A stretch of 37,275 bases of DNA. Source: Gemmatimonadaceae bacterium (GTDB lineage: Bacteria > Gemmatimonadota > Gemmatimonadetes > Gemmatimonadales > Gemmatimonadaceae). The notes under the pieces are model-generated. The model was not told the DNA's origin. It saw only the letters and a program-made list of their open reading frames with translations, and did no database searches. The stretch spans positions 1-37,275 of the forward strand of contig DASSZC010000436.1 in assembly GCA_035702925.1 (NCBI GenBank), read 5' to 3'. Below are positions 10,193-37,275 of this stretch, piece by piece. The position numbers were made by a program, and so were the translations under genes. Each line of letters begins with the position of its first letter. Within the stretch, counting starts at the first letter, position 1.

Positions 10193-10804
10193 TCAGGCGG
10201 CGCCGCCGGCTCGCGCCTGCAGCTCGGCACGCACCGCGTCGAGGGAGAGACCGAGCGCACGGAGCGCGACGAGGGTGTGGTAGATGATGTCCGCCGCCTC
10301 CGCCGTGGCGCGCGGCGCATCGCCGTCGGCGCAGGCGACCGCGAGCTCGGCGGCTTCCTCGCCGAGCTTCTTCAGTCTCAGGTTGCGATCGGCGAGCAGC
10401 TTGCGCGTATAGCCCTTGCCCGCCTCCCCCTGTTCGGCGGCGCGCTGGGCGATCGTCCGGTCGAGGGCGCCTAACGCGTCGGCGCCGTGCGCGGTCTCGC
10501 CGAAGCAGGACCGGGCACCGGTGTGGCAGGCGGGGCCAGCCGGCGCAACGCGGGCAAGGATCGCGTCGCTGTCGCAGTCAGCGGAAAGCGAGACCACCCG
10601 CTGGGTGTTGCCGCTGGTCGCTCCCTTGTGCCAGAGGCCCCGCGTGCGCGAGCGGTAATGCATCTCCCCCGTGGCGATGGTGCGCTCGAGTGCCTCACGG
10701 TCGGCGTGGGCAACCATGAGGACGATGCCGCTCGTCGCATCCTGGGTGACGACGGTGACGAGCCCGCCGCCCTTGGCGAAGTCCAGCACGTCGAGATCAA
10801 GCAC
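10193..10804 (-). CDS. hisIE: bifunctional phosphoribosyl-AMP cyclohydrolase / phosphoribosyl-ATP pyrophosphatase
   Basis: Track ORF 10193..10918 trimmed to the GTG at 10804, which overlaps the hisN stop (GTGCTTGA). Contains LDFAKGGGLVTVVTQD and the CHTGARSCF zinc motif. The C-terminal HisE part includes EEAAEL...IIYHTLV. Confidence 0.85.
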   Translation of the reverse strand: MLDLDVLDFAKGGGLVTVVTQDATSGIVLMVAHADREALERTIATGEMHYRSRTRGLWHKGATSGNTQRVVSLSADCDSDAILARVAPAGPACHTGARSCFGETAHGADALGALDRTIAQRAAEQGEAGKGYTRKLLADRNLRLKKLGEEAAELAVACADGDAPRATAEAADIIYHTLVALRALGLSLDAVRAELQARAGGAA

Positions 10805-11597
10805 GGGTGACTCCAGCTCCAAGAATCGTGCGCGCTTCACGGGCGAGCGCGGCGTTGGTGGCGATGGCGCTTCCGCCAAACCCGGTCGCGCGCCCACTCC
10901 AGTCGGTGAACACGCCACCGGATTCGGTGATGATCGGGTACAGTGCGGCGGTGTCCCACGGTCCGACGATCCCGTCGACCATCACCTCGGCGCGTCCGGT
11001 CGCGACGAGCAGGTAGCCGTAGCAGTCTCCCCACGAACGGGCGACCGCGCTCCGCGCGGCGAGCGAACGCCAGCCTTCGAGATGCTGCGGGGTCTGACGG
11101 AAGCGCTCATCGGTAGTCAGGACCGTCGCGTCAGCGAGCGTCGCAACTGATGAGACCTGGCACCGCGCGCCGTTCGACCAGCAGCCGGCACCCGATGCGG
11201 CGGCGATCATCTCGCCGACGGCGGGAAAGTACGCCGCGCCGGCGACGACCTCTTCCCCCATGGCGATGGCGACGAGCGTTCCCCAGAGCGGAACCCCGCG
11301 GACGAAGGTCTTCGTCCCGTCGATCGGGTCGACGATCCACCGATATTTCGAGCCGGCTCCCGTTTCGCCCTGCTCCTCGCCGAGTATTCCGTGATCGGGG
11401 TAGCGGCGACCGATCCACTCGCGCGCGGCCTGCTCCGCCTCACGGTCGGCGATGGTGACGGGGGATCCATCGGTCTTCCACTCGACAGCGACGCCGCGGC
11501 GGAAATGACGAAGCGCGGCATCGCCGGCGATGCGCGCGACCTCGGTGACCGCCTCGAGAAGTTCGTTTTTCGCGGGCGCGGCGGCGGTCGTGGTCAT
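10797..11597 (-). CDS. hisN: inositol-monophosphatase-family histidinol-phosphatase
   Basis: Track ORF. IMPase motifs WIVDPIDGT and WDTAA. Embedded in the his operon, with an ATGA overlap to hisF. Confidence 0.8.
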
Positions 11598-12355
11598 GCA
11601 GCCCTCCGCACCGGCACGTGGTGCGCGGCGAGCAGCGCCTTGATCTCACCGACCGTCGTGACCCCGTCGTGGAGGATCCCGGCGACCAGCGCCGCGTCGG
11701 CGCCGCCGCTGCCTAACGCGTCGAGGACGTGGTGAGCGTCCCCCGCCCCTCCGGAGGCGATCACCGGCACGTTCACCGCATCGGCGACCGCGCGAGTCAG
11801 CTCGAGGTCGTACCCGATGCGCGCACCGTCGCGATCGATGCTGGTCAGCATGATCTCCCCGGCGCCGCGCGCGACGCACTCGCGCGCCCAGCTAACGGCG
11901 TCGAGCCCGGTCGCGACGCGGCCGCCGCGGGAGTACACATGCCAGCCGTCACCTTCTCGCCGGGCGTCGATGCTGGCGACGACGCACTGCGCGCCGAAGC
12001 GATCGGCCGCCTCGGTGAGCACCTCGGGCCGTTCGATCGCCGACGAGTTGAGGCTCGTCTTGTCCGCCCCCGCGCGCAGCGCACGGCCGACGTCGTCCGC
12101 GGTGCGGATGCCACCGCCGATGGTGAGTGGGATGAACAGTCGTTCGGCGGTCCGCCGCGCGAGGTCGAGAAGGGTCGCCCGCTCCTCCGCGCTGGCCGAG
12201 ATGTCGAGGAAGACGATCTCGTCGGCGCCCTCGCGCTCATAACGCTCGGCGAGGACCACCGGATCGCCGACATCGCGCAGCGACTCGAACTGCACACCCT
12301 TCACGACCCGTCCCCCGGCGACGTCGAGGCAGACGATCAGCCGGCGCGTCAGCAC
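11594..12355 (-). CDS. hisF: imidazole glycerol phosphate synthase cyclase subunit
   Basis: Track ORF. Contains [23 protein letters not shown] and VIASGGAG. Confidence 0.95.
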
Positions 12356-12380
12356 GGCGCAGCCCCGCGGCGCGCTGTCT

Positions 12381-12920
12381 TCATTCGCTCACCTTCAGTC
12401 CGACCGAGCCCTTGGTGCTGAAGACGACTCCGTCGTCGGCGAGCGCGTCGCGAAGGCAGAGGCCCAACGCCTTGAAGCCGGCTTCGACGATGTGATGGCG
12501 ATCGACGCCGCGCAGCACGCGGATATGCACCGTCGCCATCGCGTTGTCGGCGAAAGAGCGCATCCAGTGATCATACAGCGAGGAGGGGAGCGGTCCGCGA
12601 TAGTATGGCCGGCCACCGAGATCGACCGCGCACTCGACGAGTGCATCGTCCATCGGGACGACGCGGTGCGCGTAGCGGGCCGCGGTCGATGGCGTGATCT
12701 CCCTGACCACGGCACCGACGCAGATCGCGACGTCCTCGATGGTGTGGTGGCGAAGGTCGCCGGTCGCCGCGATCTCGAGGTCGAGCCCCGAGTAGCGGGC
12801 GAGCGCAACCATCATGTGATCGAGGAACTCGACTCCCGTCTGCGAGACGCCGAGCCCATTCCCCGGCTTCGCCTCGACGCGGATGCGCGTCTCCTTGGTC
12901 TGACGCTCGACGATGCTCAT
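12381..12920 (-). CDS. hisB: imidazoleglycerol-phosphate dehydratase (monofunctional)
   Basis: Track ORF. Contains [22 protein letters not shown] and HHIVEA. Confidence 0.9.
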
Positions 12921-12930
12921 GCCAGGCTCC

Positions 12931-13644
12931 TCATTCGCAGAACTCCCCGGAGACGGCGCGCGGATCGAGCGCGCCGGTGTACAGCGCCATCCCGATCACC
13001 GCGCCGGCGATGCCGCGGTCGGCGAGCGCGCGCAGGTCGTTCATGGTTGTGATCCCGCCCGACGCGAGCACGGGAAACTCGCTCTGCTCGGCGACATCTT
13101 CCATGAGGAACAGGTCGGTCCCGCGCATCTGCCCTTCCTTGTGCACCGCGGTGACGAGCACCCCGCCGAGCGGGCTGTCGTTCAACTCGGCGATGACGTC
13201 GAAGATGTCGCGGTGCTGCGTCTTCTCCCAACCGTGGGTCACGACGCGCCGCTCACGCACGTCGGCGGCGACGATGATCTCGCCGGGATACTGCGTCGCG
13301 ATCCCGTGCAGCCACTCCGGCTCCTCGATCGCGCGCGTCCCGACGACGACATATTCCGCGCCATCGCGCAGCAGCCGCTCGATCGCATCCTCGCTTCGCA
13401 CACCGCCGCCGACCTGGACGAGCATGTCGCTCAGCCCGATGAGGTCGCGAACGATGCGCTCGTTGGAGCCGCGACCGGTCGCCGCGTCGAGGTCGACGAC
13501 GTGCAGCCGCGTGAACCCGGCATCCGTCCACGCGCGCGCGACACCGGCGGGATCGGGAATCCGGATGCGCTCCGCGTCGTACGAGCCGCCGACGAGTTGC
13601 ACGCATGCACCTTCACGAATGTCGACCGCTGGTATCGCGATCAT
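12931..13644 (-). CDS. hisA: 1-(5-phosphoribosyl)-5-[(5-phosphoribosylamino)methylideneamino]imidazole-4-carboxamide isomerase
   Basis: Track ORF. Contains IPAVDIREGACVQLVGG, VQVGGGVRS and LASGGITT. ATGA overlap with the hisH stop. Confidence 0.95.
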   Translation of the reverse strand: MIAIPAVDIREGACVQLVGGSYDAERIRIPDPAGVARAWTDAGFTRLHVVDLDAATGRGSNERIVRDLIGLSDMLVQVGGGVRSEDAIERLLRDGAEYVVVGTRAIEEPEWLHGIATQYPGEIIVAADVRERRVVTHGWEKTQHRDIFDVIAELNDSPLGGVLVTAVHKEGQMRGTDLFLMEDVAEQSEFPVLASGGITTMNDLRALADRGIAGAVIGMALYTGALDPRAVSGEFCE

Positions 13645-14240
13645 CCGAGCGCCTCGGTAACGAGCGCGGCGAGCAGGGCGACGCCCTCACGCGAGCTCTT
13701 CTCAGGGTGAAATTGCACGCCGGTCGCGCTCCCCGCGCGTACCGCCGAGGGAAAGCGGTCACCGCCCTCGGTGGTCCACGCCGTGACGACTCGGTCGTCG
13801 CGCGGGCGACAGACGTAGCTGTGTGCAAAGTAGGCGACGTCGAGAGGACTTGTAGCGAGGGCGCTCCCCGCGACTGCATCGACGGTGTTCCAGCCGATGT
13901 GCGGGATCCGCGGGGACCGGATCCGCTCGACATGCCCGGGGATCACGCCGAGCCCGCGACCGGGCCCCTCGTCACTGTCATCGAAGAGCAGCTGCATGCC
14001 GAGGCAGATGCCGATCGTTGGCAGGCCACCTTCGATCGCCGCTCGCGTCTCGGCGAGCGCGGGGGCGAGCCGCTCCGCCGCCGGCTGAAAGGCGCCGACA
14101 CCGGGAAGCACGAACAGGTCGGCCTCGATCGCCCGGCGCGGATCACTCTCGATGCTGATCGCGTGCCCCGTCTCGGCGAGTGCCTTGCCGAGCGAGTGGA
14201 GGTTTCCCGCCCCGTAATCGAACAGCGCGATGCGCATCAT
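13641..14240 (-). CDS. hisH: imidazole glycerol phosphate synthase glutamine amidotransferase subunit
   Basis: Track ORF 13641..14543 trimmed to MMRIALFDYGAGNLHS. Catalytic GICLGMQLL is present. The start overlaps the hisC stop. Confidence 0.9.
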   Translation of the reverse strand: MMRIALFDYGAGNLHSLGKALAETGHAISIESDPRRAIEADLFVLPGVGAFQPAAERLAPALAETRAAIEGGLPTIGICLGMQLLFDDSDEGPGRGLGVIPGHVERIRSPRIPHIGWNTVDAVAGSALATSPLDVAYFAHSYVCRPRDDRVVTAWTTEGGDRFPSAVRAGSATGVQFHPEKSSREGVALLAALVTEALG

Positions 14241-15328
14241 CCACCTCCCATCGTGGCGTCGAGCGCGCCGAGCGCGGCCTCGACCATGTCCCACGGTCCG
14301 ACGCTGATCCGCAGCGCCGATCCACCGCTGATGCGCAGCGCATCGCTGATCGCCGGCAATCCCTCGAACGGTCGCACCGCGACACCGAGCGTGCGCATGT
14401 GGCGCGCGCGCGCGTTCGCATTGGTGATCGGGACGAGCACGAAGTTCGCCTCCGAGTGAATGGGCGCGAGATTCCGCCGCTCGAGCTCGGAGGTGAGGCG
14501 ATCGCGGTTGGCCTTCGCTTCGACGATGTGCTCGCGTGCCCACTCGAGGCCGTCGCCGAGCGCGGCGAGCGCGGCACGCTCGGCGACGGCGTTCACCTTG
14601 TACGGTCCGCGCGACTTCTCGACTTCGGCGACGAGCGCCGGTGCGCCGGTCGCGTAGCCGATGCGCAACCCGGCGAGGCCGAACGCCTTCGACATCGTTC
14701 GCGCGACGAGCACGCGATCGTTCTCGAGGGCGCTTGGGGACAGGTCCACCGAGGCGAACTCCGCGTACGCCTCGTCGATGATCACGATGCCAGTGGCCCG
14801 CTCGACGATGCGCTCGACCGCCGAGCGCGAGAGCGATGCGCCAGTGGGGTTGTTGGGCGAGCAGAGATAGATGATGCGCGCATCGGTCGCGAGCATCGCG
14901 TCCGGGTCGATGTCATAGCTCGAGGTCAGCGGGACGGTGACGGACCGCAGCCCGTTCATCCGGGCGAAGATCGGGATCATCGCGAAGGACGGATCGGGCG
15001 AGACGATGACGTCCCCCGGTTCGGCGAAGGCGCGGATCGCCGAATCGAGAATGTCATCGGAGCCGCAACCGGTGACCATGCGGTCGTGGGAGACACCAAG
15101 GTAGCGCCCGAGCGCTTCCTTGAGCGACGCGGCGTACAGATTCGGATAGCGCGTCACCGTGGAAACCGAGGCCTGGCGAATTGCATCTTCGACAGCCGGG
15201 GCGACCCCCCAGCAGTTGGTGTTGTCGCTGAGGTCGACGCGACAGGGCGCACGGTCGGGGGCGTAGAGCTCGATCGTGCGATAGCTCTCACGCGTCAGGC
15301 CAGACGATCGGTTCATCTCGCGCTCCAT
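14237..15328 (-). CDS. hisC: histidinol-phosphate aminotransferase
   Basis: Track ORF. PLP-lysine region SKAFGLAGLRIGY. An alternative start at 15316 (MNRSSG) would give an ATGA overlap with the hisD stop. Confidence 0.9.
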   Translation of the reverse strand: MEREMNRSSGLTRESYRTIELYAPDRAPCRVDLSDNTNCWGVAPAVEDAIRQASVSTVTRYPNLYAASLKEALGRYLGVSHDRMVTGCGSDDILDSAIRAFAEPGDVIVSPDPSFAMIPIFARMNGLRSVTVPLTSSYDIDPDAMLATDARIIYLCSPNNPTGASLSRSAVERIVERATGIVIIDEAYAEFASVDLSPSALENDRVLVARTMSKAFGLAGLRIGYATGAPALVAEVEKSRGPYKVNAVAERAALAALGDGLEWAREHIVEAKANRDRLTSELERRNLAPIHSEANFVLVPITNANARARHMRTLGVAVRPFEGLPAISDALRISGGSALRISVGPWDMVEAALGALDATMGGG

Positions 15329-16614
15329 GCTCTGGCCGCGGCAGCGTGTCCGGGAAGTTCTTCCGCATCGGCGAAGATGCCGACGTCACCCGCCAACCGC
15401 GCCGCTGCCTCACGGTCGATCCGCTGCCAGGTCGTCCAGCGGACGAAGTCGAGGGTGGACAGCCCCGAGTAGCAGCGAGCGAGTCCGCCGGTGGGAAGGA
15501 CGTGGTTCGCGCCGGTCATGTAGTCGCCGAACGCGACGGAGCTCGTCGCACCGACGAAGACGGTACCGGCACCGCGCAGCTGGCGAAGTACGCTGTCGGA
15601 ATCGGCGCAGGCGACCAGCACGTGTTCGGCAGCGATCTCGTTGGCGAGCGCGATCGCCTGCCTCATGTCGTCGGCCTCGAGCACTCCGCCGCGAGCGCCG
15701 AGTGCGGCGGCGACGATGGCGCGTCGCGGCGCGGAATCGATCGCAGCGGTGAGCGAAGCATCGATAGCGCTGGACGAACCGACGACGATCGCCAGCACCA
15801 GGGTATCCGGGTCGTGCTCGGCCTGCGCGACGAGCTCTCGCGCGACGACGTCGGGGTCGGCCGCCGCGTCGCAGATGATCAGCAGCTCGCTCGGTCCAGC
15901 CGGCGAGTCGATGGCGACGTTTCCGGACACCTGCAGCTTCGCCTCGGCGACATACGCGTTCCCCGGCCCGACGATGCGATCGACGCGCGGGACGCTCCCG
16001 GTGCCGTATGCCATCGCCGCGATCGCCCCCGCCCCGCCTAACGCGAAGACGCGGTCGACGCCGGCGAGCGCGGCCGCGGCGAGCACCACGGGCGCGGGCT
16101 CGCCGCCGGCTTGCGGGGGCGAGCAGAGCACGACCTCGCCGACCCCGGCGACCCGCGCCGGCACCGCGCCCATCAGGACGCTGCTCGGATAGAGGGCACG
16201 CCCACCGGGAGCGTAGACACCGACGCGCCCGAGCGGATCCGGACGCCGGCCGATGATGACACCCGGCTCCGTCTCGATCTCCTGCGCCACCGGACGAAAG
16301 GCCGCGTGCGCGGTCTCGATATTTCGCGCCGCACGCTCCATCGCCTTCCGCAGCGGCGGCTCGACGCGATCGAGCGCCCGCAGCCATCGGGGACGCGGTA
16401 CCTCGAGCGCATCGAGGTTGACCCCGTCGAGCTCCACCGCCAGGGCGCGCAGCGCCGCGTCGCCTTCGCGACGCACGCGCGAAACGATCCCCGCCACGCG
16501 CTCACGGACGACCGGGTCACTCGACGTCGTCCGCTCGAGCAGCAATCGCCTCGTTGCCTCGCTCATCTCGGCGACCCGCCCCGCCACCGCCCACCGTGCT
16601 CGCCCCTCTCTCAT
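15313..16614 (-). CDS. hisD: histidinol dehydrogenase
   Basis: Track ORF. Contains QAEHD and GDYMTGANHVLPTGG. The true start may be the internal ATG at 16566 (MSEATRR). Confidence 0.9.
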   Translation of the reverse strand: MREGRARWAVAGRVAEMSEATRRLLLERTTSSDPVVRERVAGIVSRVRREGDAALRALAVELDGVNLDALEVPRPRWLRALDRVEPPLRKAMERAARNIETAHAAFRPVAQEIETEPGVIIGRRPDPLGRVGVYAPGGRALYPSSVLMGAVPARVAGVGEVVLCSPPQAGGEPAPVVLAAAALAGVDRVFALGGAGAIAAMAYGTGSVPRVDRIVGPGNAYVAEAKLQVSGNVAIDSPAGPSELLIICDAAADPDVVARELVAQAEHDPDTLVLAIVVGSSSAIDASLTAAIDSAPRRAIVAAALGARGGVLEADDMRQAIALANEIAAEHVLVACADSDSVLRQLRGAGTVFVGATSSVAFGDYMTGANHVLPTGGLARCYSGLSTLDFVRWTTWQRIDREAAARLAGDVGIFADAEELPGHAAAARAWSAR

Positions 16615-16676
16615 CTCTCATTCGGAGTCTCTCTCGTCTCTCATCGCCGTGTCATAGCCAGCATGGCGGAGTGATC

Positions 16677-17546
16677 TCAAGGCATGAGCCGCTCGATCCT
16701 CGTCACGAGGATCCCTTCGGCGCCGAGCGACTTCAGCTCGGCGATCGTGCGATAGACCGTCTTTGCCGGAACGACCGCGTGCACCGCGACGTGAATGCCG
16801 CCGTCGAGGATGTCGATCACCGTCGGGCCGTTGAGCCCGGGGATCACCCGGCGCACCGCGTCGAGCGCGGCGCGGGGGACGTTGGCCATGAGGTAGCGCT
16901 TCCCGCGCGCGCGGAGCACCGAGTCGAGCGCCATCGTCAGCTCCTCGATCGAGCGCCGGCGGTCGGCGCTCCCCGTCGTCAGCGCGTTAGGCGCGGCGAC
17001 GAGGCGGGCCGTCGACTCCATGATCGTCTCGACCTCGTGGAGCCCATTCACCTTGAGCGTCGAACCCGTCGAGGTGATGTCGACGATGACGTCGGCGATG
17101 CCGATGTGCGGCGCGATCTCGGCCGCCCCGGAGACGGGGACGATCTCGACGCGCTGGTTGCGGTCGGCGAAGAAGCGCGCGGCCAGCCGCGGGTAGACGG
17201 TGGCGACTCTCGCCCCGGCGGGGATCGCGGCTGTCGTCGCAACGCTGCTGTCGTCGCTCGCGGCGACGATGAGGCGGCAGCGCCCGAACTCGAGGTCGGC
17301 GAGGGTCTCGAGGTCGCGCCCCGACTCGCTGACGAGGTCCCAGCCGGTGACGCCGGCGTCGGCGGCGCCGTCGGCGACGAACTCGGGGATGTCCTGGGCG
17401 CGAACGAACAGCGCCTGGAACTCGCCACCAAGCGAGGCCGTCAGCGCCCGCTCACCGGTAGCCCGTACCTCGAGCCCGGCGTCGCCGAACAGCAGGCGCG
17501 CCTCCTCGGAAAGCCGTCCCTTGTTCGGTAGTGCGATCTTCAACAT
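16677..17546 (-). CDS. hisG: ATP phosphoribosyltransferase (long form)
   Basis: Track ORF. MLKIALPNKGRLSEEA, with a C-terminal regulatory domain present (289 aa). Confidence 0.95.
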   Translation of the reverse strand: MLKIALPNKGRLSEEARLLFGDAGLEVRATGERALTASLGGEFQALFVRAQDIPEFVADGAADAGVTGWDLVSESGRDLETLADLEFGRCRLIVAASDDSSVATTAAIPAGARVATVYPRLAARFFADRNQRVEIVPVSGAAEIAPHIGIADVIVDITSTGSTLKVNGLHEVETIMESTARLVAAPNALTTGSADRRRSIEELTMALDSVLRARGKRYLMANVPRAALDAVRRVIPGLNGPTVIDILDGGIHVAVHAVVPAKTVYRTIAELKSLGAEGILVTRIERLMP

Positions 17547-18532: not shown

Positions 18533-18572
18533 GTGACGAAGGCGGAAGCGCATGCGCTTCCGCCTTCGTCAT
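18533..18572 (+). terminator. long GC-rich hairpin after the cupredoxin gene
   Basis: GACGAAGGCGGAAGCGC-AT-GCGCTTCCGCCTTCGTC, with 17-bp perfect arms, about 20 nt after the stop codon. The tail ATATTCGTC is only weakly U-rich. Confidence 0.55.
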
Positions 18573-18628
18573 ATTCGTCACCAGCGCAGCCTTGTGCAGC
18601 GGACGCCACCGCGAGATACTCGCCACTG

Positions 18629-20350
18629 ATGCCCCCCGCCTCTCCCCGAATCGGACGCCGCCGCGCGGCGAGCTCGCAATGGATCAATGCGCGCGCTCGC
18701 AACGTGCTGCGCCGTCCGCTGCGCATCGGGCTCGTGGGGCTCGTCGTCTTCATCGGCGCGCTGCTCACGCTCGTCGCACTGCCCCGTCAGGCGCAGCGCG
18801 TCGCCGCCGCGGTTGCACCCGCGCCTAACGAGTGGCGGGACACCGCGCGCCTCATCGCCGGCGTCGAACGGGACCGCGCGAGGCTGGACAGCGCCGAACA
18901 ATCGCTCGCCACCGCGCGCGCCATCCTTACGCGCCCGGTCGCACCGCCACCGGTCGATTCGCTTCCACCCGAGGTCCTCGCCCGCCGCGACTCCCTCGCC
19001 GCGATCGTGACCGGTCTCGGGCGGCTGATCACGCGCGTCGAGCAATCGCCGCTTGCCGCATCGTATCGCGCGCTCGCTGACGCCCCCGCGATGCGCGGGG
19101 ATCCGTCGGTGCGCGCGCTCGTCGATTCGCTCGTCGACGTCGAGCGGGAACGTGATGCGTTCGGCGCGGTCGGCGGGATCGACCCGAACTACGTCGCGCT
19201 CACCGCGCGCGCGACGGAGATCGGGCACGCGATCCAGGAGATCGCCGGCGTCAAGCGCGCCGCGCTGCAGCGTGAGGCGGCGGCAATGACGCCGCCGCCC
19301 CCGGCACCGGTCGCTCGCCCTGTGATCGACACGATGCCGCGGCTCGCCCATCGCGACTCCGTTCGCCGGCTGCTCGAGGCACGCACGCGCCTCCTCGTCG
19401 ATGCGCGCCGGGTCAACAGCTCCGTCGAGCGTCGCGCGGAACGGGCGCGCGAGCTGGCGAACGTCTCGGCACCGCCGATCGCGCTCCTCGGGGCATCGCT
19501 GGTGCTCGGCATCGCCGCCGGTTTTGCCGTCGCGCTGATCGGCGAGATGCGCCGCCCGCGGGTGGCGGACGTGCGCGAAGCCGAACGCGCGACGGGGTTG
19601 AGGGTGCTTGCACACCTGCGCCCGTACGAGCCGCCGCCTGAACGCGCGCGCCGCCGCGCGGATCGCGAGCTCCCGCCCCTGCTCGAGCCGGGCGCGGATG
19701 GCTATCGGTTCCTCTATCTCCAGCTGTCCGGGATGATGCCCGGCAGCTGGCTGGCCACCGTCGCCAGCCATGACTCCGCGCTCGCCGCGGTCGTCGCCGC
19801 GAACGTCACCGCCCTCGCAGCCCTCGATGCACGGGCGTCGCTGCTCGTCGATGCCGATCCCGCCGGCTGCGCCGCCGGGGTGATGCGCGTCGCCCCCGGT
19901 CCTGGGGTCGGCGAGATCGCTCGCGGCGAGCTGGCGTGGAGCGAAGCCCCGGTCACGCAGATCGTCGGCCGCGACCGTGCAACCGAGATCGTCCCCTCGG
20001 GACGACGCGCCGAACCCGCCGAGATCGCAGCCGCGCTCACGCGCGAGGTGCCGCGCCTCGCCCGCCGTTATGACACGGTCGTCGTCACCAGTGGGCTCAG
20101 CGCGCTGGTCGCTGCCCCGGTGCTGGCGGTTCCGCGCATCATCCTCATCGTCCGCGCCGGCACGACGGTGCTCACCGAGCTGACACGCGACGTCGCCGCA
20201 CTGCGCGAGAATGGCGCGCAGCTTCTCGGGCTGGTGCTCTGGGATCGCGACGAGCCGCATGTCCCGACCCGGGAGGAGCTCGACGCGCTCGCCAGCGCGG
20301 CGAATCGCGGCGTCCCCGCCGAAATGCTGATCGAATCTCGTGTGGGCTGA
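18629..20350 (+). CDS. polysaccharide co-polymerase (Wzz/Wzc)-like membrane protein with a degenerate C-terminal P-loop domain
   Basis: Track ORF 18533..20350 trimmed, because its first Met lies inside the terminator hairpin. Architecture is TM (IGLVGLVVFIGALLTLVAL), a roughly 260-aa Ala/Arg-rich coiled segment, a second TM (IALLGASLVLGIAAGFAVALIG), then a domain ending LLVDADP...VVVTSG...ILIVRAG. That domain resembles a BY-kinase/MinD fold but has no GK[ST] Walker A. Confidence 0.45.
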   Translation: MPPASPRIGRRRAASSQWINARARNVLRRPLRIGLVGLVVFIGALLTLVALPRQAQRVAAAVAPAPNEWRDTARLIAGVERDRARLDSAEQSLATARAILTRPVAPPPVDSLPPEVLARRDSLAAIVTGLGRLITRVEQSPLAASYRALADAPAMRGDPSVRALVDSLVDVERERDAFGAVGGIDPNYVALTARATEIGHAIQEIAGVKRAALQREAAAMTPPPPAPVARPVIDTMPRLAHRDSVRRLLEARTRLLVDARRVNSSVERRAERARELANVSAPPIALLGASLVLGIAAGFAVALIGEMRRPRVADVREAERATGLRVLAHLRPYEPPPERARRRADRELPPLLEPGADGYRFLYLQLSGMMPGSWLATVASHDSALAAVVAANVTALAALDARASLLVDADPAGCAAGVMRVAPGPGVGEIARGELAWSEAPVTQIVGRDRATEIVPSGRRAEPAEIAAALTREVPRLARRYDTVVVTSGLSALVAAPVLAVPRIILIVRAGTTVLTELTRDVAALRENGAQLLGLVLWDRDEPHVPTREELDALASAANRGVPAEMLIESRVG

Positions 20351-28656: not shown

Positions 28657-29037
28657 ATGGCGAACGGCGCGGCGTCCGGCGATTCCCATCGCGACGCGCG
28701 GCAGGATGGTCCCGAGGCTCCCCTGCCGGAACTCACCCCGCGAGAGCTGGCCGAGCTGCTGGTGCGGGGCGAGACTCCGTTCATCCTCGACGTGCGCGAG
28801 CCACACGAGCACGCGTACGCGCGGATCGGCGGGTCCGAGCTGATCCCTCTCGGGGCACTGCACCGGACGATCGACACACTGCCGCGGGAGCGCGACGTCG
28901 TCGTCTACTGCCATCATGGGATTCGCAGCGCGCACGCGGTGGAGATGCTGCGCGGCGCCGGCGTCCGCGCGCGCAACCTGTCCGGCGGGATCGACCGCTG
29001 GAGCACCGAGGTCGACCCATCGGTCCGACGTTACTGA
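28657..29037 (+). CDS. single-domain rhodanese sulfurtransferase
   Basis: In-frame ATG inside track ORF 28546..29037. Contains FILDVREPHE and the active-site loop YCHHGIRS. Confidence 0.85.
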   Translation: MANGAASGDSHRDARQDGPEAPLPELTPRELAELLVRGETPFILDVREPHEHAYARIGGSELIPLGALHRTIDTLPRERDVVVYCHHGIRSAHAVEMLRGAGVRARNLSGGIDRWSTEVDPSVRRY

Positions 29038-31685: not shown

Positions 31686-32699
31686 TTAGGCGCCGGCGGC
31701 GGGCCGCGGCGGCATCCGCCGCGTCCGCTCGTCACCCAGTACCCAGCAGCGGTCCGCGGGAAGATGCCGAGCCGCCCAGGCGTCGAGCGCGCGTCTGGGC
31801 GGCTCGTCCATCGGTTCGTCGGTGAGGCGGAAAGTCCCCCAGTGCGTCGCGAGCAGCACGGGGGCGGGCGCTCCCGCGCCGGCGCCGAGATCCACGGCGG
31901 CGGACACCGCTTCCTCGGCGTTCATGTGCACGGGCCGCATGAACCAGCGCGGCTCATACGCGCCGATCGGAAGGAGCGCGAGATCGAAGGGCCCTAGCCG
32001 GCGGCCGATCTCGACGAACTCGGGATGGTAGCCCGTGTCGCCGCCGAAGAGAACGCGCCATCCATGCGCTGCGATCGCGAAGCCCGCCCACAAGGTGCTG
32101 TCGCGATTGGCGAGCGAGCGGCCGCTGAAATGCTGCGCGGGGACGGCGGTGATGATGGTGTCGGCGGCCCTCGTCGACTGCCACCAGTCGAGCTCGGCCA
32201 CCTGCGCAACGCCGAAACTGGTGAGCAGTCCGCCGACGCCGAGGGGGGCGACCCAGCGTGCCGCCGGGTGCGCGATGGCGAGGGCACGGATCGTTGGCGC
32301 GTCGAGGTGGTCGTAGTGGTCGTGGGAGAGGACGACGACGTCGATCGGCGGCAGCGAGGCGAGGGATATCGCCGGAGGAACGAGCCGGCGCGGCCCGGCC
32401 CACGAGACCGGCGACGCGCGCTCGCTCCAGATCGGGTCGGTGAGCACGTTCATCGCGCCGACCTGCAGGAGGACCGTCGAATGGCCGATCCACGTGGCGC
32501 GCAGCGAGCCGTCGTCCTGCCGTGGGTGCACGATGGCCGAGCGACCGACCGCGAGCGGCGAGCGGTCGGCGACACGCTCGCCGCGCAGCCGCCTAACGGC
32601 GCGGCCGGCGGCCCAGCGGAGAACGGCGGAAAATCCCTGCGGTCGGGCGCCGGGCCATGGATTGCGGTAGCCGCCGCCGGGTGCGTGGTGCTCGGTCAT
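31686..32699 (-). CDS. MBL-fold metallo-hydrolase (NAPE-PLD-like)
   Basis: C-terminal 337 aa of track ORF 31686..34163, starting MTEHHAPGGGYRNPWPG. Metal motif VVLSHDHYDHLD. The N-terminal roughly 490 aa of the track ORF are antisense to the NHL gene. Confidence 0.85.
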   Translation of the reverse strand: MTEHHAPGGGYRNPWPGARPQGFSAVLRWAAGRAVRRLRGERVADRSPLAVGRSAIVHPRQDDGSLRATWIGHSTVLLQVGAMNVLTDPIWSERASPVSWAGPRRLVPPAISLASLPPIDVVVLSHDHYDHLDAPTIRALAIAHPAARWVAPLGVGGLLTSFGVAQVAELDWWQSTRAADTIITAVPAQHFSGRSLANRDSTLWAGFAIAAHGWRVLFGGDTGYHPEFVEIGRRLGPFDLALLPIGAYEPRWFMRPVHMNAEEAVSAAVDLGAGAGAPAPVLLATHWGTFRLTDEPMDEPPRRALDAWAARHLPADRCWVLGDERTRRMPPRPAAGA

Positions 32700-32801
32700 C
32701 TGTGAATCGGGGACGAGTGCAACGGCGCGCCGGGAGGGACGCGGGAATGGCGCGAAGATTGATCGCTCGCGTGGCGAGCGGGATCCCTTCATTCCAGTAA
32801 C

Positions 32802-34238
32802 ATGCCAGCGATGGATGTTCCCAGAGTACGCGCGCCCGGCTTTCCCGAGGGACTGGATTGGATCGGCACCGGCGGTCGCGCGCTGACGCTGGCCGACCTG
32901 CGGGGAAGGATCACGATCCTCGACTTCTGGACCTACGGCTGAATCAACTGCATCCACATCCTCCCGCAGTTGCGGGAGCTCGAGGGGCGGTTCAGCGAGG
33001 AGCTCGCGGTCATCGGCGTCCATAGCGGGAAGTTCATCGCCGAGCGCGAGACTGCACGGATCGCCGACGCCGCGCGACGGCTCGGTGTCGCGCATCCGGT
33101 CGTCAATGATCGCCAGTTCCGCGTCTGGCGGGGCTACGCGGTGCGGGCGTGGCCGACGATCGTGGTCATCGATCCGGAAGGGTACGTGGTCGGCATGCAC
33201 GCGGGAGAGTTCACCGCCGGGATGGTCGCGCCGGCGATCGAGCGGATCGTCGCCGATGCGGGAGCGACGCTGAGACGGAGCAGCGCCGCGCCCGCCGCCG
33301 ACGCGCGCGAGCCCAGGGCGCTGCGCTATCCGGGGAAGGTGGCGGTCGCCGGCAAGCGTATCGCGATCGCCGACTCCGGCAACGACCGCGTGCTCGTCGG
33401 GGAGCTGGACGGTGCGCGGGCGAGGATCACCTGCGTGTTCGGCGCGACGCGCGGGTTTCGTGATGGCGGAGAGCCGCTGTTCGACCATCCGCAGGGGCTC
33501 CTGTTCGATGGTGATGCGCTCCTCGTCGCTGACGCCTTCAATCACGCGATTCGCGAGATCGACCTGATCTCCGGGAGGACGCGGACGATCGCCGGCACCG
33601 GCAAGCAGCTGCGAACACGCGCCGACGAGCGAACGGGTGCGCTCTCCTCGCCCTGGGACCTGGCCCGCGCCGGCGATCGCGTCGCGATAGCGATGGCCGG
33701 GAATCATCGGCTGTACATGCTCGACCGGACCGCGGCGAGGGCCCGCGCAATCGCGGGGAGCGGCGCGGAAGAGCTTCACGACGGCCCGATCGCGGATGCC
33801 GCGCTTGCCCAGCCGATGGGGATCTGCGCCGACGAGCGCAGGATCTGGTTCGCCGACGCCGAGTCGAGCGCGGTCCGCGTCGCCGACGTGGAGGCGGAGG
33901 GGAGCGTCGCCACCCTCGTCGGAACGGGGCTGTTCGACTTCGGCGACGTCGACGGCGAGGGGGAGGAGGTCCGGCTGCAGCATCCGCAGGGGATCCTGCG
34001 CATGGCTGACGGACGACTGCTCGTCGTCGACACGTACAACGATGCGCTCAAGTGGCTCGAGCCGGCGAGCCGGCGGGTGACGACGTGGGTGCGCGGGCTG
34101 CACGAGCCGGGCGGTGCCGCACTCGGCGACGGCGTCGTCTACGTCGCGGACACGAATGCGCACCGGATCGCGATCGTCTCGCTCGACGACGGGACGGTCG
34201 GGACGCTGTCGCTGGACTGGGGTACAGCGGGGAGCTGA
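32802..34238 (+). CDS. thioredoxin-fold (TlpA/DipZ/NHLRC2-like redoxin) plus NHL-repeat protein with in-frame TGA at 32940-32942 (candidate selenocysteine, U-I-N-C)
   Basis: The frame of track ORF 32970..34238 extends upstream through a single TGA to the ATG at 32802. The translation reads [80 protein letters not shown]... The stretch upstream of the TGA is the conserved beta-strand and WxY segment preceding CxxC in this family. Downstream are NHL repeats ([55 protein letters not shown]). Confidence 0.7.
32961..32978 (+). promoter_or_regulatory. SECIS-like stem-loop downstream of the in-frame TGA
   Basis: CTCCCGC-AGTT-GCGGGAG, a 7-bp GC-rich stem with a 4-nt loop containing GU. It starts 18 nt after the TGA. 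AACTG (32946-32950) may pair with CGGTT downstream to extend the stem. Confidence 0.4.
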
Positions 34239-34268: not shown

Positions 34269-35453
34269 CTAACGCGCGATGGTCTCGGCGATCGCCAGGT
34301 TCTCGGCGACGTGCTTCGCCCCGCGCATGCCGACAAGCGCGGTGGTGATCCCGGGAACGCCGCGGACGAAGGCGAGCGCGCGCTGGGCGTCGGTGTCGTA
34401 GCGCGGGAGCGCGTCGCGAACGGCGGCCGGGAGCGAACGGGCGAGCGCCGACTGCATGAGCGACGCGCTGGCGACGACGACGAGCCCGAGCTCCGACGCG
34501 GCCTCGAGCGCGGTACGCTCGCGCGTGCCGACCCGCTGGGTCGGCGTCCGCAGCGCTTCGCTCATCGCGAGGTTCACCGGGAGCTGCACATACTGGAAGT
34601 GATGCGCATCGCCCGCCACTTCGCGCGCGGCGCCGACCAGCTCCTCGAGGGAGAGGCTCTCCCGCGATTCGGGATCGACGCGGAGCCCGTTCCAGGTCGC
34701 GCAGCCGTAGGCGGCGATGTCGCCGGCCTCGACGCGTGACTCGAGGGCCTCGAAGGCGCGGACGACCCGGCGCCGGAACAGCTCGCGCCCGATCGTCGCG
34801 ACCTGCTGCTCGGGGTTGTGCAGATAATAGACGTCTATGGTTTCGAGCCCGAGGTTGGCGCGGCTGCGGGCAACCTGGTCGGCGAGATAGCCCGGAGCCA
34901 TGCAGTGCCCGCCACCGACGACGTCCTCGGGGCGCATCACGCCGCGGGCGAAGTACTCGCGCTCGATGAGCTGGTTGTATTCGTCGCGCGACGCGGGAGG
35001 GCTCCCGTCGAGGGGGATGTACCCTCCCTTGCTGCAGACGATCACCTCGTCGCGACGCGCGACCCCGTCGTCGAAGAGCGCGGTGAGCGCGCGGCCGACG
35101 ACGCGCTCCGAGCGCTGGCAGCGATAGTTGATCGCCGTGTCGATGACGTTGAGGCCAGCGGTGACCGCCGCGCGCAACGCTTCCTCGTAGCGACGGTCGT
35201 CGGCGTCGTCCGGCTCGCCGAGGTAGGTGCCGATGCCGATCGACGAGACGAGGAGGGCGCCGGCGGCGGGGCGGTAGAAGTCGGGAATGCGCTCGGGCGC
35301 GAAGCGCGCGGCGATGCGCTCGGTCCCGGTCACGGTGGCGCGCGCTCCACCGCCGGCATGCGCGACCGCGCTTGCGCCGGAGCTGGCGACCGCCGTCGCG
35401 GCCGACTCACCCCGCCCTCCCTCGTGACCCGCTGAACGTCCGGTATTCATCAT
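34269..35453 (-). CDS. aldo/keto reductase family oxidoreductase
   Basis: Track ORF. Contains IGIGTYLG, NVIDTAINYR and YYLHNPE. The Gly/Ala-rich N-terminal roughly 45 aa suggest the true start is further downstream. Confidence 0.85.
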   Translation of the reverse strand: MMNTGRSAGHEGGRGESAATAVASSGASAVAHAGGGARATVTGTERIAARFAPERIPDFYRPAAGALLVSSIGIGTYLGEPDDADDRRYEEALRAAVTAGLNVIDTAINYRCQRSERVVGRALTALFDDGVARRDEVIVCSKGGYIPLDGSPPASRDEYNQLIEREYFARGVMRPEDVVGGGHCMAPGYLADQVARSRANLGLETIDVYYLHNPEQQVATIGRELFRRRVVRAFEALESRVEAGDIAAYGCATWNGLRVDPESRESLSLEELVGAAREVAGDAHHFQYVQLPVNLAMSEALRTPTQRVGTRERTALEAASELGLVVVASASLMQSALARSLPAAVRDALPRYDTDAQRALAFVRGVPGITTALVGMRGAKHVAENLAIAETIAR

Positions 35454-35623
35454 GCGATGGGGACGCTATGGGGAGTGTGCTGTCGAAGCAAGGGCGTGCG
35501 AGCGTTGCGCTGCCCTTCCATCACCGGCGGCCGGTCCCCAACGTTCATGAAACCGGCGTCGTTCGCGGCGGTCCTCCCGTCGCGGTGGCGCTCTCGTCGT
35601 CCCCATTCCGGCCAGGTGCACTC

Positions 35624-37275
35624 GTGAGACAGGCTTTCACCGCGTTGTTGCTCCTCGGAGCGGCGGCCTGCAGCCGCAACAAGCCGCAAGTCGTCACTCC
35701 CGTTCCCATCGACAGTGCACGCGTCGTCGTCGAGTCGATGGGCCGCTCGGCGAAGACGTTCGTGACCACCGCCGACGATCCATTCGTGCGGATCGACCGG
35801 ATGGAATGGCCAGGACCGAACCGCTTCCGGTCCGCCGACGGACAGCCGGGGCCGGAGTACTGGCAACAGCGTGCCGACTACATCATCAGCGCGACGCTCG
35901 ACACCGCGGGGCGCTCGGTGACCGGCAGCGTGACGATCAAGTACACGAACAACTCTCCCGACACCCTTCGCTTCGTCTGGCTGCAGGTCGACCAGAATCT
36001 CTACCGTCCGGGGAGCAAGGGCTCGGTCATCAATCCAGCCGACAGCCGGTGGGGCGCGCGCAACTTCCAGGGTGGCTACGACATCAGCGCACTCACGGTC
36101 GACGGCAAGGCGCAGGCGCCGAAGGTCGACGACACGATGATGCGCATCGACCTCGAAAAGCCGATCGCCCCGAAGGGTGGGACGGCGACGATCGCGATGA
36201 GCTTCCGCTTCCTCGTTCCCGATCATGGGTCCGACCGGATGGGACGCGACGGGACGCTGTACGAGATCGCGCAGTGGTACCCGAGGATGGCGGTCTATGA
36301 CGACGTTCGCGGGTGGAACACCGATCCGTACCTCGGGCAAGGGGAGTTCTACCTCGAGTACGGCGATTACGACTACTCGGTAACGGTTCCCGCCGGCTAC
36401 ACCGTCGCCGGGAGCGGGCTGCTGCAGAACGCGAGCGAGGTGCTGACGGCGAGCGAGCGGCAGCGGCTCGCGCAGGCGGCGACGTCGACGAACGTCGTCC
36501 AGATCATCACGGCGGCCGAGTCGGCGCCGAAGAAGACGGCGGGGACGAAGACGTGGAAGTTCCACGCCGACAACGTGCACGACGTCGCGTGGGCCGCCGC
36601 CCCCGACATGCGGTGGGACGCGGTGAGCACGGGCCCGATCGCGAACAACGAGAAGGGAGTGCTGGCGCAGGCCTACTACGTGTGGCCGCGGGCGGGGGCC
36701 GGGTGGGAGAATGGCGCGGAGAACACCCAGTGGACGATCCGCACGTACTCGTCGCTGTTCTATCCGTTCCCGTATCCGCAGGCGTCGTCCGTCGCCGGCC
36801 CGGTGGGGGGAATGGAGTATCCGATGTTCGTGATGGTGCACTACGCGCAGAACGCGCAAGGCGCCTTCGGGACGATCGATCACGAGCATGGCCACGAGTG
36901 GTTCCCGATGATCGTCAGCAGCAACGAACGGCGCTACGCGTGGATGGACGAGGGGTTCAACACCTACATCAACGCCTTCTCGAACGAGCTGCGCACGCCG
37001 GCGAAGCCGGTCTGGCCGGTCTACATGGCGAACTGGCGGGACATCCAGGGGAAGGGAATCTCCGCGCCGCTGATGACGCCGCCCGACCGGATCGACCCGG
37101 CAGCGTTAGGCGCGATCGGCTATCGCAAGCCGGCGGCGGTGCTGCTGACGCTGCGCGACCATGTCGTCGGCCGCGAGACCTTCGACCGCGCCTTCCGCGA
37201 GTACGCGCGGCGCTGGGCGTACAAGCACCCGACTCCCGCCGACTTCTTCCGCACCGTCGAGAACGTGAGTGGCAC
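35624..37275 (+). CDS. M1-family zinc metallopeptidase lipoprotein (C-terminus cut by window edge)
   Basis: The frame is open from the GTG at 35624 to the window end, so it is absent from the track. Signal/lipobox VRQAFTALLLLGAAAC. Zinc motif HEHGHEWFP with WMDEGFNTY 18 residues later (HExxH-X18-E). Confidence 0.85.
   Translation, partial: MRQAFTALLLLGAAACSRNKPQVVTPVPIDSARVVVESMGRSAKTFVTTADDPFVRIDRMEWPGPNRFRSADGQPGPEYWQQRADYIISATLDTAGRSVTGSVTIKYTNNSPDTLRFVWLQVDQNLYRPGSKGSVINPADSRWGARNFQGGYDISALTVDGKAQAPKVDDTMMRIDLEKPIAPKGGTATIAMSFRFLVPDHGSDRMGRDGTLYEIAQWYPRMAVYDDVRGWNTDPYLGQGEFYLEYGDYDYSVTVPAGYTVAGSGLLQNASEVLTASERQRLAQAATSTNVVQIITAAESAPKKTAGTKTWKFHADNVHDVAWAAAPDMRWDAVSTGPIANNEKGVLAQAYYVWPRAGAGWENGAENTQWTIRTYSSLFYPFPYPQASSVAGPVGGMEYPMFVMVHYAQNAQGAFGTIDHEHGHEWFPMIVSSNERRYAWMDEGFNTYINAFSNELRTPAKPVWPVYMANWRDIQGKGISAPLMTPPDRIDPAALGAIGYRKPAAVLLTLRDHVVGRETFDRAFREYARRWAYKHPTPADFFRTVENVSG

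Follow-up and report, generated by a model that had tools for sequence, protein, structure and literature searches.

The stretch of DNA analysed here, hereafter the window, comprises 37,275 nucleotides from a Gemmatimonadaceae bacterium (GenBank assembly GCA_035702925.1, contig DASSZC010000436.1, forward strand) and carries a plus-strand gene for a thioredoxin (Trx)-like protein with an NHL-repeat propeller, in which an in-frame TGA takes the place of the first cysteine of the redox motif. From ATG 32802 the frame is open until the stop at 34236-34238, with TGA 32940-32942 as its sole interruption, and in the mechanical list of open reading frames (ORFs) the gene runs from TTG 32970 to 34238. 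The initial annotation proposed that this gene encodes a selenoprotein, with selenocysteine (Sec) inserted at the TGA under the direction of a nearby hairpin, and its coordinates for the frame, the TGA, the TTG start and the hairpin (32961-32978) proved correct on re-reading. It also traced the open frame back to ATG 32802; the frame is indeed open from there, but a second ATG at 32811 (MDVPRVRAP...) is the more likely start codon, because homologues conserve it as MD[VSL]P..VRAP. The predicted full selenoprotein coding sequence accordingly spans 32811..34238 on the plus strand (475 codons plus stop, TGA 32940 read as Sec), the longest version being that from ATG 32802.

Domain organization and protein family

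Domain searches were carried out with Cys put in place of the stop. Pfam identified a Trx-like domain of the TlpA/ResA/DipZ type at amino acids (aa) 21-139 (32862..33218, plus strand), with matches to Thioredoxin_8 (3.3e-10), AhpC-TSA (2.5e-9) and Redoxin (3.5e-5), and this domain bears the UxxC motif. A six-bladed NHL-repeat β-propeller follows at 33309..34211 (plus strand), indicated by a Pfam NHL match (4.5e-21) and by matches to SOQ1 and NHLRC2 in the PDB. Curated NCBIfam cutoffs were not reached by the scores for ResA (50 bits vs. 170), StoA (31 vs. 210) or TlpA (24 vs. 230), and the NCBIfam selenoprotein models gave no match to the window protein. The best sequence match in the PDB was the lumenal region of Arabidopsis SOQ1 (7DJJ, E 2.7e-83, query residues 10-428), together with human NHLRC2 (6GC1, E 4.2e-69, query residues 10-469 of 478), the C-terminal domain of Mycobacterium tuberculosis DipZ (2HYX, E 6e-23) and ResA (~1e-9). 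In the alignment with SOQ1, the stop falls on the first Cys of the C-I-N-C motif, so that FWTYG-U-INC stands opposite FWTYC-C-INC, and the codon at 32940..32942 (plus strand) would thus specify the first residue of a U-I-N-C redox motif, as the alignment of homologues indicates.

The structure was modelled for a Cys orthologue, P0062, which is 60% identical to the window protein and served as its stand-in. The AlphaFold model had a mean predicted local distance difference test score (pLDDT) of 90.4 and a predicted template modelling score (pTM) of 0.90. The Cys equivalent to the proposed Sec lies between the strand at residues 34-40 and the helix at residues 45-60, at the N-terminus of helix α-1, and this position identifies it as the canonical CxxC site of the Trx fold. 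Over both domains the model superimposes with template modelling (TM) scores of 0.89 on NHLRC2 (6gc1_A) and 0.90 on SOQ1 (7djk). Its propeller strands span residues 175 to 472; the bacterial protein ends about eight residues past the last of them and has no signal peptide. On sequence comparison, the window protein is judged to be orthologous to the lumenal part of plant SOQ1 and to human NHLRC2, and it is a shorter, two-domain, presumably cytoplasmic form of this family.

Conservation of the UGA codon among relatives

Relatives of the gene were collected from a genome scan and a metagenome scan, both dominated by Cys forms because one search pattern was DFWTYGCI; the counts from them are lower bounds. 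The genome scan contained TGA in at least three loci from metagenome-assembled genomes (MAGs) of Gemmatimonadota (L001-L003) and TGC or TGT in at least 77 loci of other lineages, including Chloroflexota, Acidobacteriota, Longimicrobiaceae and Gammaproteobacteria. The metagenome scan contributed at least six TGA loci (L081-L086) and at least 74 Cys loci. These two scans supplied nine Sec loci, and the remaining ones were fetched protein by protein. The complete set (L001-L003, L081-L086, L161-L169, L172, L175, L176, the L117 paralogue and the window itself) reduces to 19 distinct loci. TGA is found in each of these 19, which comprise 17 intact orthologues with 55-84% aa identity, a disrupted orthologue (L172) and one paralogue, while TGC or TGT occupies the same codon in 147 distinct homologues among the matches listed.

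Protein databases reflect the same division. Among the best 120 database hits, 109 are proteins of ~337-473 aa that cover 70-89% of the query and start just past the active site, and the other 11, which are full-length (476-525 aa, 54-61% identity), are all Cys forms. Eight of the short proteins (P0036, P0050, P0054, P0037, P0100, P0071, P0108 and P0059) were checked at the DNA level, and all eight have the TGA; the loci of P0117 and P0111 likewise have it. Gene callers divide the Sec-form gene into an ORF of 43-50 aa and another of ~420 aa, and every Sec-type database entry seen is N-terminally short, the gene being mis-annotated as two ORFs. The TGA loci are drawn from independent assemblies of different samples made with different pipelines (NCBI MAGs, JGI, ENA and Logan), and the recurrence of the codon among them therefore excludes a read error. 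In the window itself, TGA is the stop codon of 16 of the 23 confidently identified genes, so it has its normal meaning there and the genetic code has not been reassigned; recoding must consequently be local and needs a local signal.

The disrupted orthologue, L172 (ena:ERZ27260309:k141_697307), carries at L172:9907-9956 a frame-shifting insertion of 50 nucleotides, TGACGTTGGGGACGAACCGCACGGTTCGTCCCGGATCTCACCCGTCATGG, between the ..DFW and TYG-TGA codons. The insertion contains a hairpin of its own and is bounded by TGACG/CGTCA; neither the TGA nor the SECIS-type hairpin that follows the TGA is damaged. An element resembling miniature inverted-repeat transposable elements (MITE-like) or an assembly artefact could account for the insertion; no second copy was found in the 174 loci compared.

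Coding selection on both sides of the UGA codon

Selection was assessed from Nei-Gojobori counts of the proportions of synonymous (pS) and nonsynonymous (pN) differences among 15 distinct orthologues. The 38 codons before the TGA gave pS 0.496 and pN 0.128 (ratio 0.26), the 90 codons after the hairpin gave 0.485 and 0.168 (0.35), and everything after the hairpin gave 0.53 and 0.246 (0.47). With pN/pS of 0.26, the 38 upstream codons must therefore be translated in frame, and protein-level selection on the N-terminal fragment is no weaker than on the rest of the protein. The first possible start past the TGA varies in place and type between orthologues (MRELE.., MLPQL.., MHVLPQ.., VHVLPQ..), which argues against an independent downstream cistron. 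Apart from L172, the TGA orthologues contain no other stops or frameshifts.

The hairpin downstream of the UGA codon

A stem-loop that resembles the core of a bacterial Sec insertion sequence (bSECIS) lies within the coding sequence at 32961..32978 (plus strand). It consists of the stem CTCCCGC (32961-32967), the loop AGTT (32968-32971) and the complementary GCGGGAG (32972-32978), starts 18 nucleotides past the TGA, and has a TGA-to-loop spacing of 25 nucleotides. The 61 nucleotides at 32940-33000 fold with -23.5 kcal/mol (z = -1.9 vs. shuffles), a modest value for a single sequence that by itself is suggestive rather than decisive, so that the case for a SECIS element leans mainly on the relatives; the local hairpin folds with -12.8 to -13.5 kcal/mol. 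The consensus for such elements, which originates from Zhang and Gladyshev (2005) as summarised in PMC13188914, specifies a loop of 3-9 nucleotides, an upper stem of 4-16 base pairs (bp), a G among the first two loop nucleotides that is usually followed by G or U, a UGA-to-loop distance of 16-37 nucleotides, and a minimum free energy (MFE) of -7.5 kcal/mol or lower (PMC13188914). The window hairpin agrees with this description on all four counts (loop AGUU, 7 bp, 25 nucleotides, -12.8 kcal/mol). The same test was passed by 16 of 16 distinct TGA sequences and by 2 of 147 distinct Cys sequences, a contrast for which Fisher's test gives 2.8e-20, a value that is not a true probability since the sequences are related. 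Two further TGA loci also carry a hairpin of the bSECIS type.

A clear constraint acts on the hairpin as RNA. Synonymous divergence in its six codons (L-P-Q-L-R-E) is suppressed about 7-fold, with pS of 0.073 vs. ~0.5 in the flanks. Of 152 alignment columns with an invariant degenerate amino acid, just 15 also have an invariant codon, and 8 of these 15 fall within positions +1 to +13 of the UGA. At codons +1 to +3 (AUC AAC UGC) the nucleotide sequence never varies among Sec forms. The Leu codon in the loop is UUG in every Sec form, although UUG is rare in the genes of the window, where it accounts for 3.6% of all Leu codons. Distant Cys forms have IPDLKRLE or LPELAALE at the hairpin position, and therefore the peptide LPQLRE is itself imposed by the RNA. 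Pairing is maintained in every cell of the hairpin alignment, and pair 24-37 occurs as C-G in 13 sequences, as U·G in two and as U-A in one, the U-A state costing a Glu-to-Lys replacement; this covariation is limited, although its direction is the expected one. An additional lower stem around the core (32946..32992, plus strand; AACUGC.UCC with GGG.GCGGUU) appears in the MFE fold with some uncertainty. Its strands (32946-32955 with 32984-32992) are paired in 86.8% of cells in the orthologues, and four of nine pairs are broken in some of them; with ~87% pairing and little covariation, this lower stem is not claimed as part of the element.

Interpretation of the UGA codon

Judged from the comparative sequence evidence, the window gene is very probably a real selenoprotein gene in which UGA is decoded as Sec. 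The stem-loop, with its 7-bp stem and AGUU loop, would be the bacterial SECIS element through which SelB·GTP·Sec-tRNASec is brought to the ribosome, and UGA at the position of the nucleophilic first Cys of CxxC would then yield a product with a U-I-N-C active site. In the mechanism proposed for this product, predicted to be a cytoplasmic thiol:disulfide oxidoreductase of ~475 aa, the selenolate would attack a substrate disulfide or a sulfenic or otherwise oxidised species, Cys+3 would resolve the resulting selenenylsulfide, and the NHL propeller may act as a binding platform for a substrate or partner. The claims of the initial annotation that underlie this interpretation have held up in the wider comparison. 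In alignments with the 147 distinct Cys homologues and SOQ1, the TGA coincides exactly with the first CxxC cysteine; the hairpin agrees with the bSECIS model in its GU-containing loop and spacing, with constraint present at the RNA level; purifying selection is seen on both sides of the codon, as expected of a coding gene rather than a pseudogene, with the relative L172 and its insertion as the exception; a miscall of TGC or TGT is not the cause of the TGA, which recurs in independent assemblies; and the candidate selenoprotein gains support from the presence of TGA in every orthologue read from the Gemmatimonadota clade.

Several points weigh against decoding as Sec. The evidence for it is computed, coming from sequences and a structure model. 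Neither selA, selB, selD nor a tRNA-Sec gene was found in the window (37 kb) or in the flanks retrieved with the loci: ARAGORN detected no tRNA in the window and 10 Sec loci, an Rfam scan of the window at gathering thresholds returned nothing, and sel genes were not among the Pfam matches of 30 window ORFs. When the window and 17 loci related to it were scanned for a second selenoprotein gene, sought as a TGA with coding signal to either side, only the target gene came out convincingly. The hairpin offers little covariation, with six of its seven pairs invariant, and the orthologue L176 lacks the basal pair, still having 6 bp and the AGUU loop. One copy among the 18 distinct orthologous loci, that in L172, is disrupted, which leaves the overall picture unchanged. 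A Sec trait in Gemmatimonadota was not reported in the literature searched, Gemmatimonadetes go unmentioned in the supplements of Peng et al. (2016), and Gemmatimonadaceae are absent from the selenoproteome papers searched.

Four other explanations of the interrupted frame were weighed. The UGA might be recoded through the SECIS and a SelB-like factor but specify Cys, delivered by a tRNASec-like tRNACys with anticodon UCA, as reportedly happens in some Actinobacteria. A conserved UGA and a hairpin of the bSECIS type fit this arrangement equally well, and selA and selD are not among the genes seen in the window or flanks; it is, however, a rare exception among known systems, and a change from TGA to TGC would yield an identical product and save the cost of recoding. 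That UGA has nevertheless persisted across 55-84% aa identity argues for a recoded residue other than Cys. Insertion of Cys is thus considered very unlikely. To the same very low degree of probability, the TGA could be a true stop that separates a peptide of 43-46 aa from a protein of ~420 aa initiated at an internal start (TTG 32970). Every gene caller annotates the locus in this way, and an in-frame TTG, ATG or GTG occurs soon past the TGA in each locus, but the position and type of this start vary between orthologues, and the Trx fold would be cut exactly at CxxC, leaving a domain without an active site. A split of this kind would also fail to account for the constraint on the hairpin, or for the retention of the FWTYG motif under purifying selection in the 38 upstream codons.

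Stop-codon read-through stimulated by a 3' structure exists in bacteria and viruses, and this general precedent, along with the failure to see sel genes in the window or flanks, could be taken to favour read-through independent of Sec machinery, in which a near-cognate tRNA (Trp, Cys or Arg) and stimulation by the hairpin would yield small amounts of full-length protein free of selenium. CxxC chemistry would nevertheless be lost with Trp or Arg as the nucleophilic residue, both the loop GU and the 25-nucleotide spacing specifically match the SelB-dependent bSECIS model, and the loop GU decays once the codon is TGC, as in the Cys form L173 described below; such read-through is considered extremely unlikely. 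The frame-shifting insertion in L172 is the observation that might be cited for a pseudogene or for a TGA that is a sequencing error for TGC or TGT. That insertion aside, the genes are free of other stops and frameshifts, pN/pS is 0.26-0.47 over the whole gene, and TGA is found in 19 of 19 distinct related loci from independent assemblies, so that decay or error has a barely appreciable probability and, as far as the comparative sequence data reach, is refuted by them.

Cysteine forms, a paralogue and evolution of the family

The distribution of Sec and Cys forms was examined in a neighbour-joining (NJ) tree computed without bootstraps. U and C forms are interleaved inside the class-level Gemmatimonadetes clade, while Longimicrobiaceae and all other phyla in the tree have Cys forms, and all orthologous U forms have the same hairpin. 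Because of this interleaving and the hairpin common to the U forms, a single ancestral Sec form followed by several Sec-to-Cys reversions would be the simplest interpretation. One Cys form, L173 (positions 1351-1413 of logan:DRR655075_32; P0062, with TGC), groups within the Sec clade. It has kept the stem CUCCCGC/GCGGGAG, its loop is AGCU instead of AGUU, and UUG has become the common Leu codon CUG. The hairpin of L173 looks like a relic SECIS, relaxed after the change from Sec to Cys.

A second redoxin-type gene, the paralogue counted above and a further selenoprotein candidate, was seen on the contig of locus L117 (L117:4104; JABAOC010003259.1). Its translation reads ..VVMVEFWTFG, then the stop, then INCIHVIPSLREW.., so that here, too, the first Cys is replaced by TGA. 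This gene has its own, different hairpin, AUUCCCUC-GUU-GAGGGAAU, which lies 26 nucleotides downstream, at the same offset as in the orthologues. The SOQ1-like gene on this contig, at position 1773, is a Cys form, and the contig ends about 50 codons past the TGA of the second gene. At the Cys-form loci L170 (L170:6990-8950) and L171 (L171:7926-9886), two genes on the opposite strand lie directly upstream that are absent from Sec-form loci. One encodes a 552-aa protein that combines cyclic nucleotide monophosphate (cNMP) binding with a pyridine-nucleotide-disulfide oxidoreductase resembling thioredoxin reductase (TrxR), and the other a zf-UBP protein. These genes might represent a reductase partner.

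Genomic context

The gene is monocistronic at the window locus. It is flanked by a divergent gene for a metallo-β-lactamase (MBL)-fold hydrolase (31686-32711, minus strand; Lactamase_B_2, 6e-46) and by a convergent gene for an aldo/keto reductase (34269-35453, minus strand; Pfam), and the order of MBL-fold, Trx-NHL and aldo/keto reductase genes is kept in most orthologous loci. A scan for promoter and terminator consensus sequences around the gene found nothing. An ORF of 825 aa runs antisense to the gene (31686-34163, minus strand) and has a family match only in its final 341 codons (31686-32711), the remainder being not a gene but the kind of extended open frame typical of DNA with 70% GC.

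According to Pfam, which was run on the 30 window ORFs, the remainder of the window is ordinary chromosome, with mnmG, an ABC-F protein, an M16 peptidase, a his operon, ispG and Crp. In the histidine operon (10193-17546, minus strand), hisG, hisD, hisC, hisH, hisA, hisB and hisF are compactly arranged, hisIE follows after a stretch of ~675 nucleotides in which no gene was identified, and all of the genes terminate with TGA. Two further ORFs have no Pfam match: one of 605 aa (18533-20350, plus strand) shows a coding-type signal in the GC content of third codon positions (GC3), and one of 481 aa (35450-36895, minus strand) did not pass the GC3 filter and may, like the antisense frame, be an artefact of high GC content. 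A small rhodanese gene is located between Crp and an α/β hydrolase (28660-29037, plus strand, in the window; L161:6139-6396; L162:4744-5118). Selenoproteins are known from the rhodanese family, and the gene calls vary in length among loci. As a candidate second selenoprotein it was rejected; it has an ordinary Cys active site (VVYCHHGIRS) and no in-frame TGA.

Significance and relationship to known systems

The Sec form proposed here for soil Gemmatimonadaceae, within the Trx-NHL family of the SOQ1/NHLRC2 type, is previously unlisted in the papers and family libraries searched. NHL repeats, SOQ1 and NHLRC2 are absent from the selenoprotein family tables of PMC13188914 and PMC9312934, and the literature searched contained no relevant paper linking SOQ1 or NHLRC2 to Sec. 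Held with moderate confidence is the wider proposal that Sec-containing SOQ1/NHLRC2 orthologues constitute an unrecognised selenoprotein family, widespread in soil Gemmatimonadaceae to judge from the 109 of the 120 best database clusters that are shortened in the manner of the TGA forms, and that the first Cys of CINC is the catalytic nucleophile throughout the family. Pairs of Sec and Cys at equivalent positions serve as an established mark of catalytic redox cysteines. A natural U-I-N-C form would in this way argue that the Trx-like domain of SOQ1 and NHLRC2 is a real thiol-disulfide catalyst with the first Cys as nucleophile, and would, if true, open a direct approach to what human NHLRC2 does biochemically, a protein that is associated with FINCA disease, and to the biochemistry of plant SOQ1. 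If true, it would likewise place Sec decoding in the Gemmatimonadaceae, an abundant aerobic soil lineage. Recognition of the Sec codon corrects the gene models of a whole clade of soil bacteria, restoring the active site and the first 43-46 residues of the catalytic domain, which nearly all of the nearest database entries are missing. The Gemmatimonadetes clade also offers a clean example of Sec-Cys interchange, in which the loop GU of the SECIS is lost and its stem kept after reversion to Cys. Recoding of UGA by a bSECIS to place Sec in a UxxC Trx fold is a textbook mechanism, and the finding is useful for annotation and for the chemistry of NHLRC2 and SOQ1 rather than mechanistically new.

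Comparison with SOQ1 and NHLRC2 reveals the same succession of a Trx-like domain and a six-bladed NHL propeller, in the same relative arrangement, and the shared active-site context FWTY-x-C-I-N-C. The plant and human proteins differ in having C-C-I-N-C as their own motif, whereas the bacterial forms have G-[C/U]-I-N-C, with the first Cys encoded by UGA here. SOQ1 additionally possesses a C-terminal domain, a HAD domain and a membrane anchor, all three of which the bacterial protein lacks, and NHLRC2 has a C-terminal β domain that is likewise missing from it. DipZ (2HYX), ResA and TlpA contain the same type of Trx-like domain with a reductase-type CxxC context, but they are membrane-anchored or exported, use Cys, and lack the NHL propeller.

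Among selenoproteins, Trx-fold families with UxxC motifs include the thiol-disulfide isomerase-like proteins (PF13905/cd02966), the Prx-like thiol:disulfide oxidoreductases (PF00578), the Redoxin family proteins (PF08534) and Sec-Trx/Grx (PMC13188914; PMC9312934). They resemble the window protein in having Sec at the N-terminal position of the motif, a fold of the TlpA/redoxin type, Cys homologues in the majority and a bSECIS just downstream in the coding sequence; the NHL propeller, which is not found in the families tabulated, sets the window protein apart from them as far as the table descriptions go. The hairpin itself corresponds to the bSECIS of the Escherichia coli fdhF type in being an in-frame stem-loop 3' of the UGA with G at the second loop position followed by U, and it differs from the E. 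coli elements in sequence, to which it has no similarity, as is usual for bSECIS elements.

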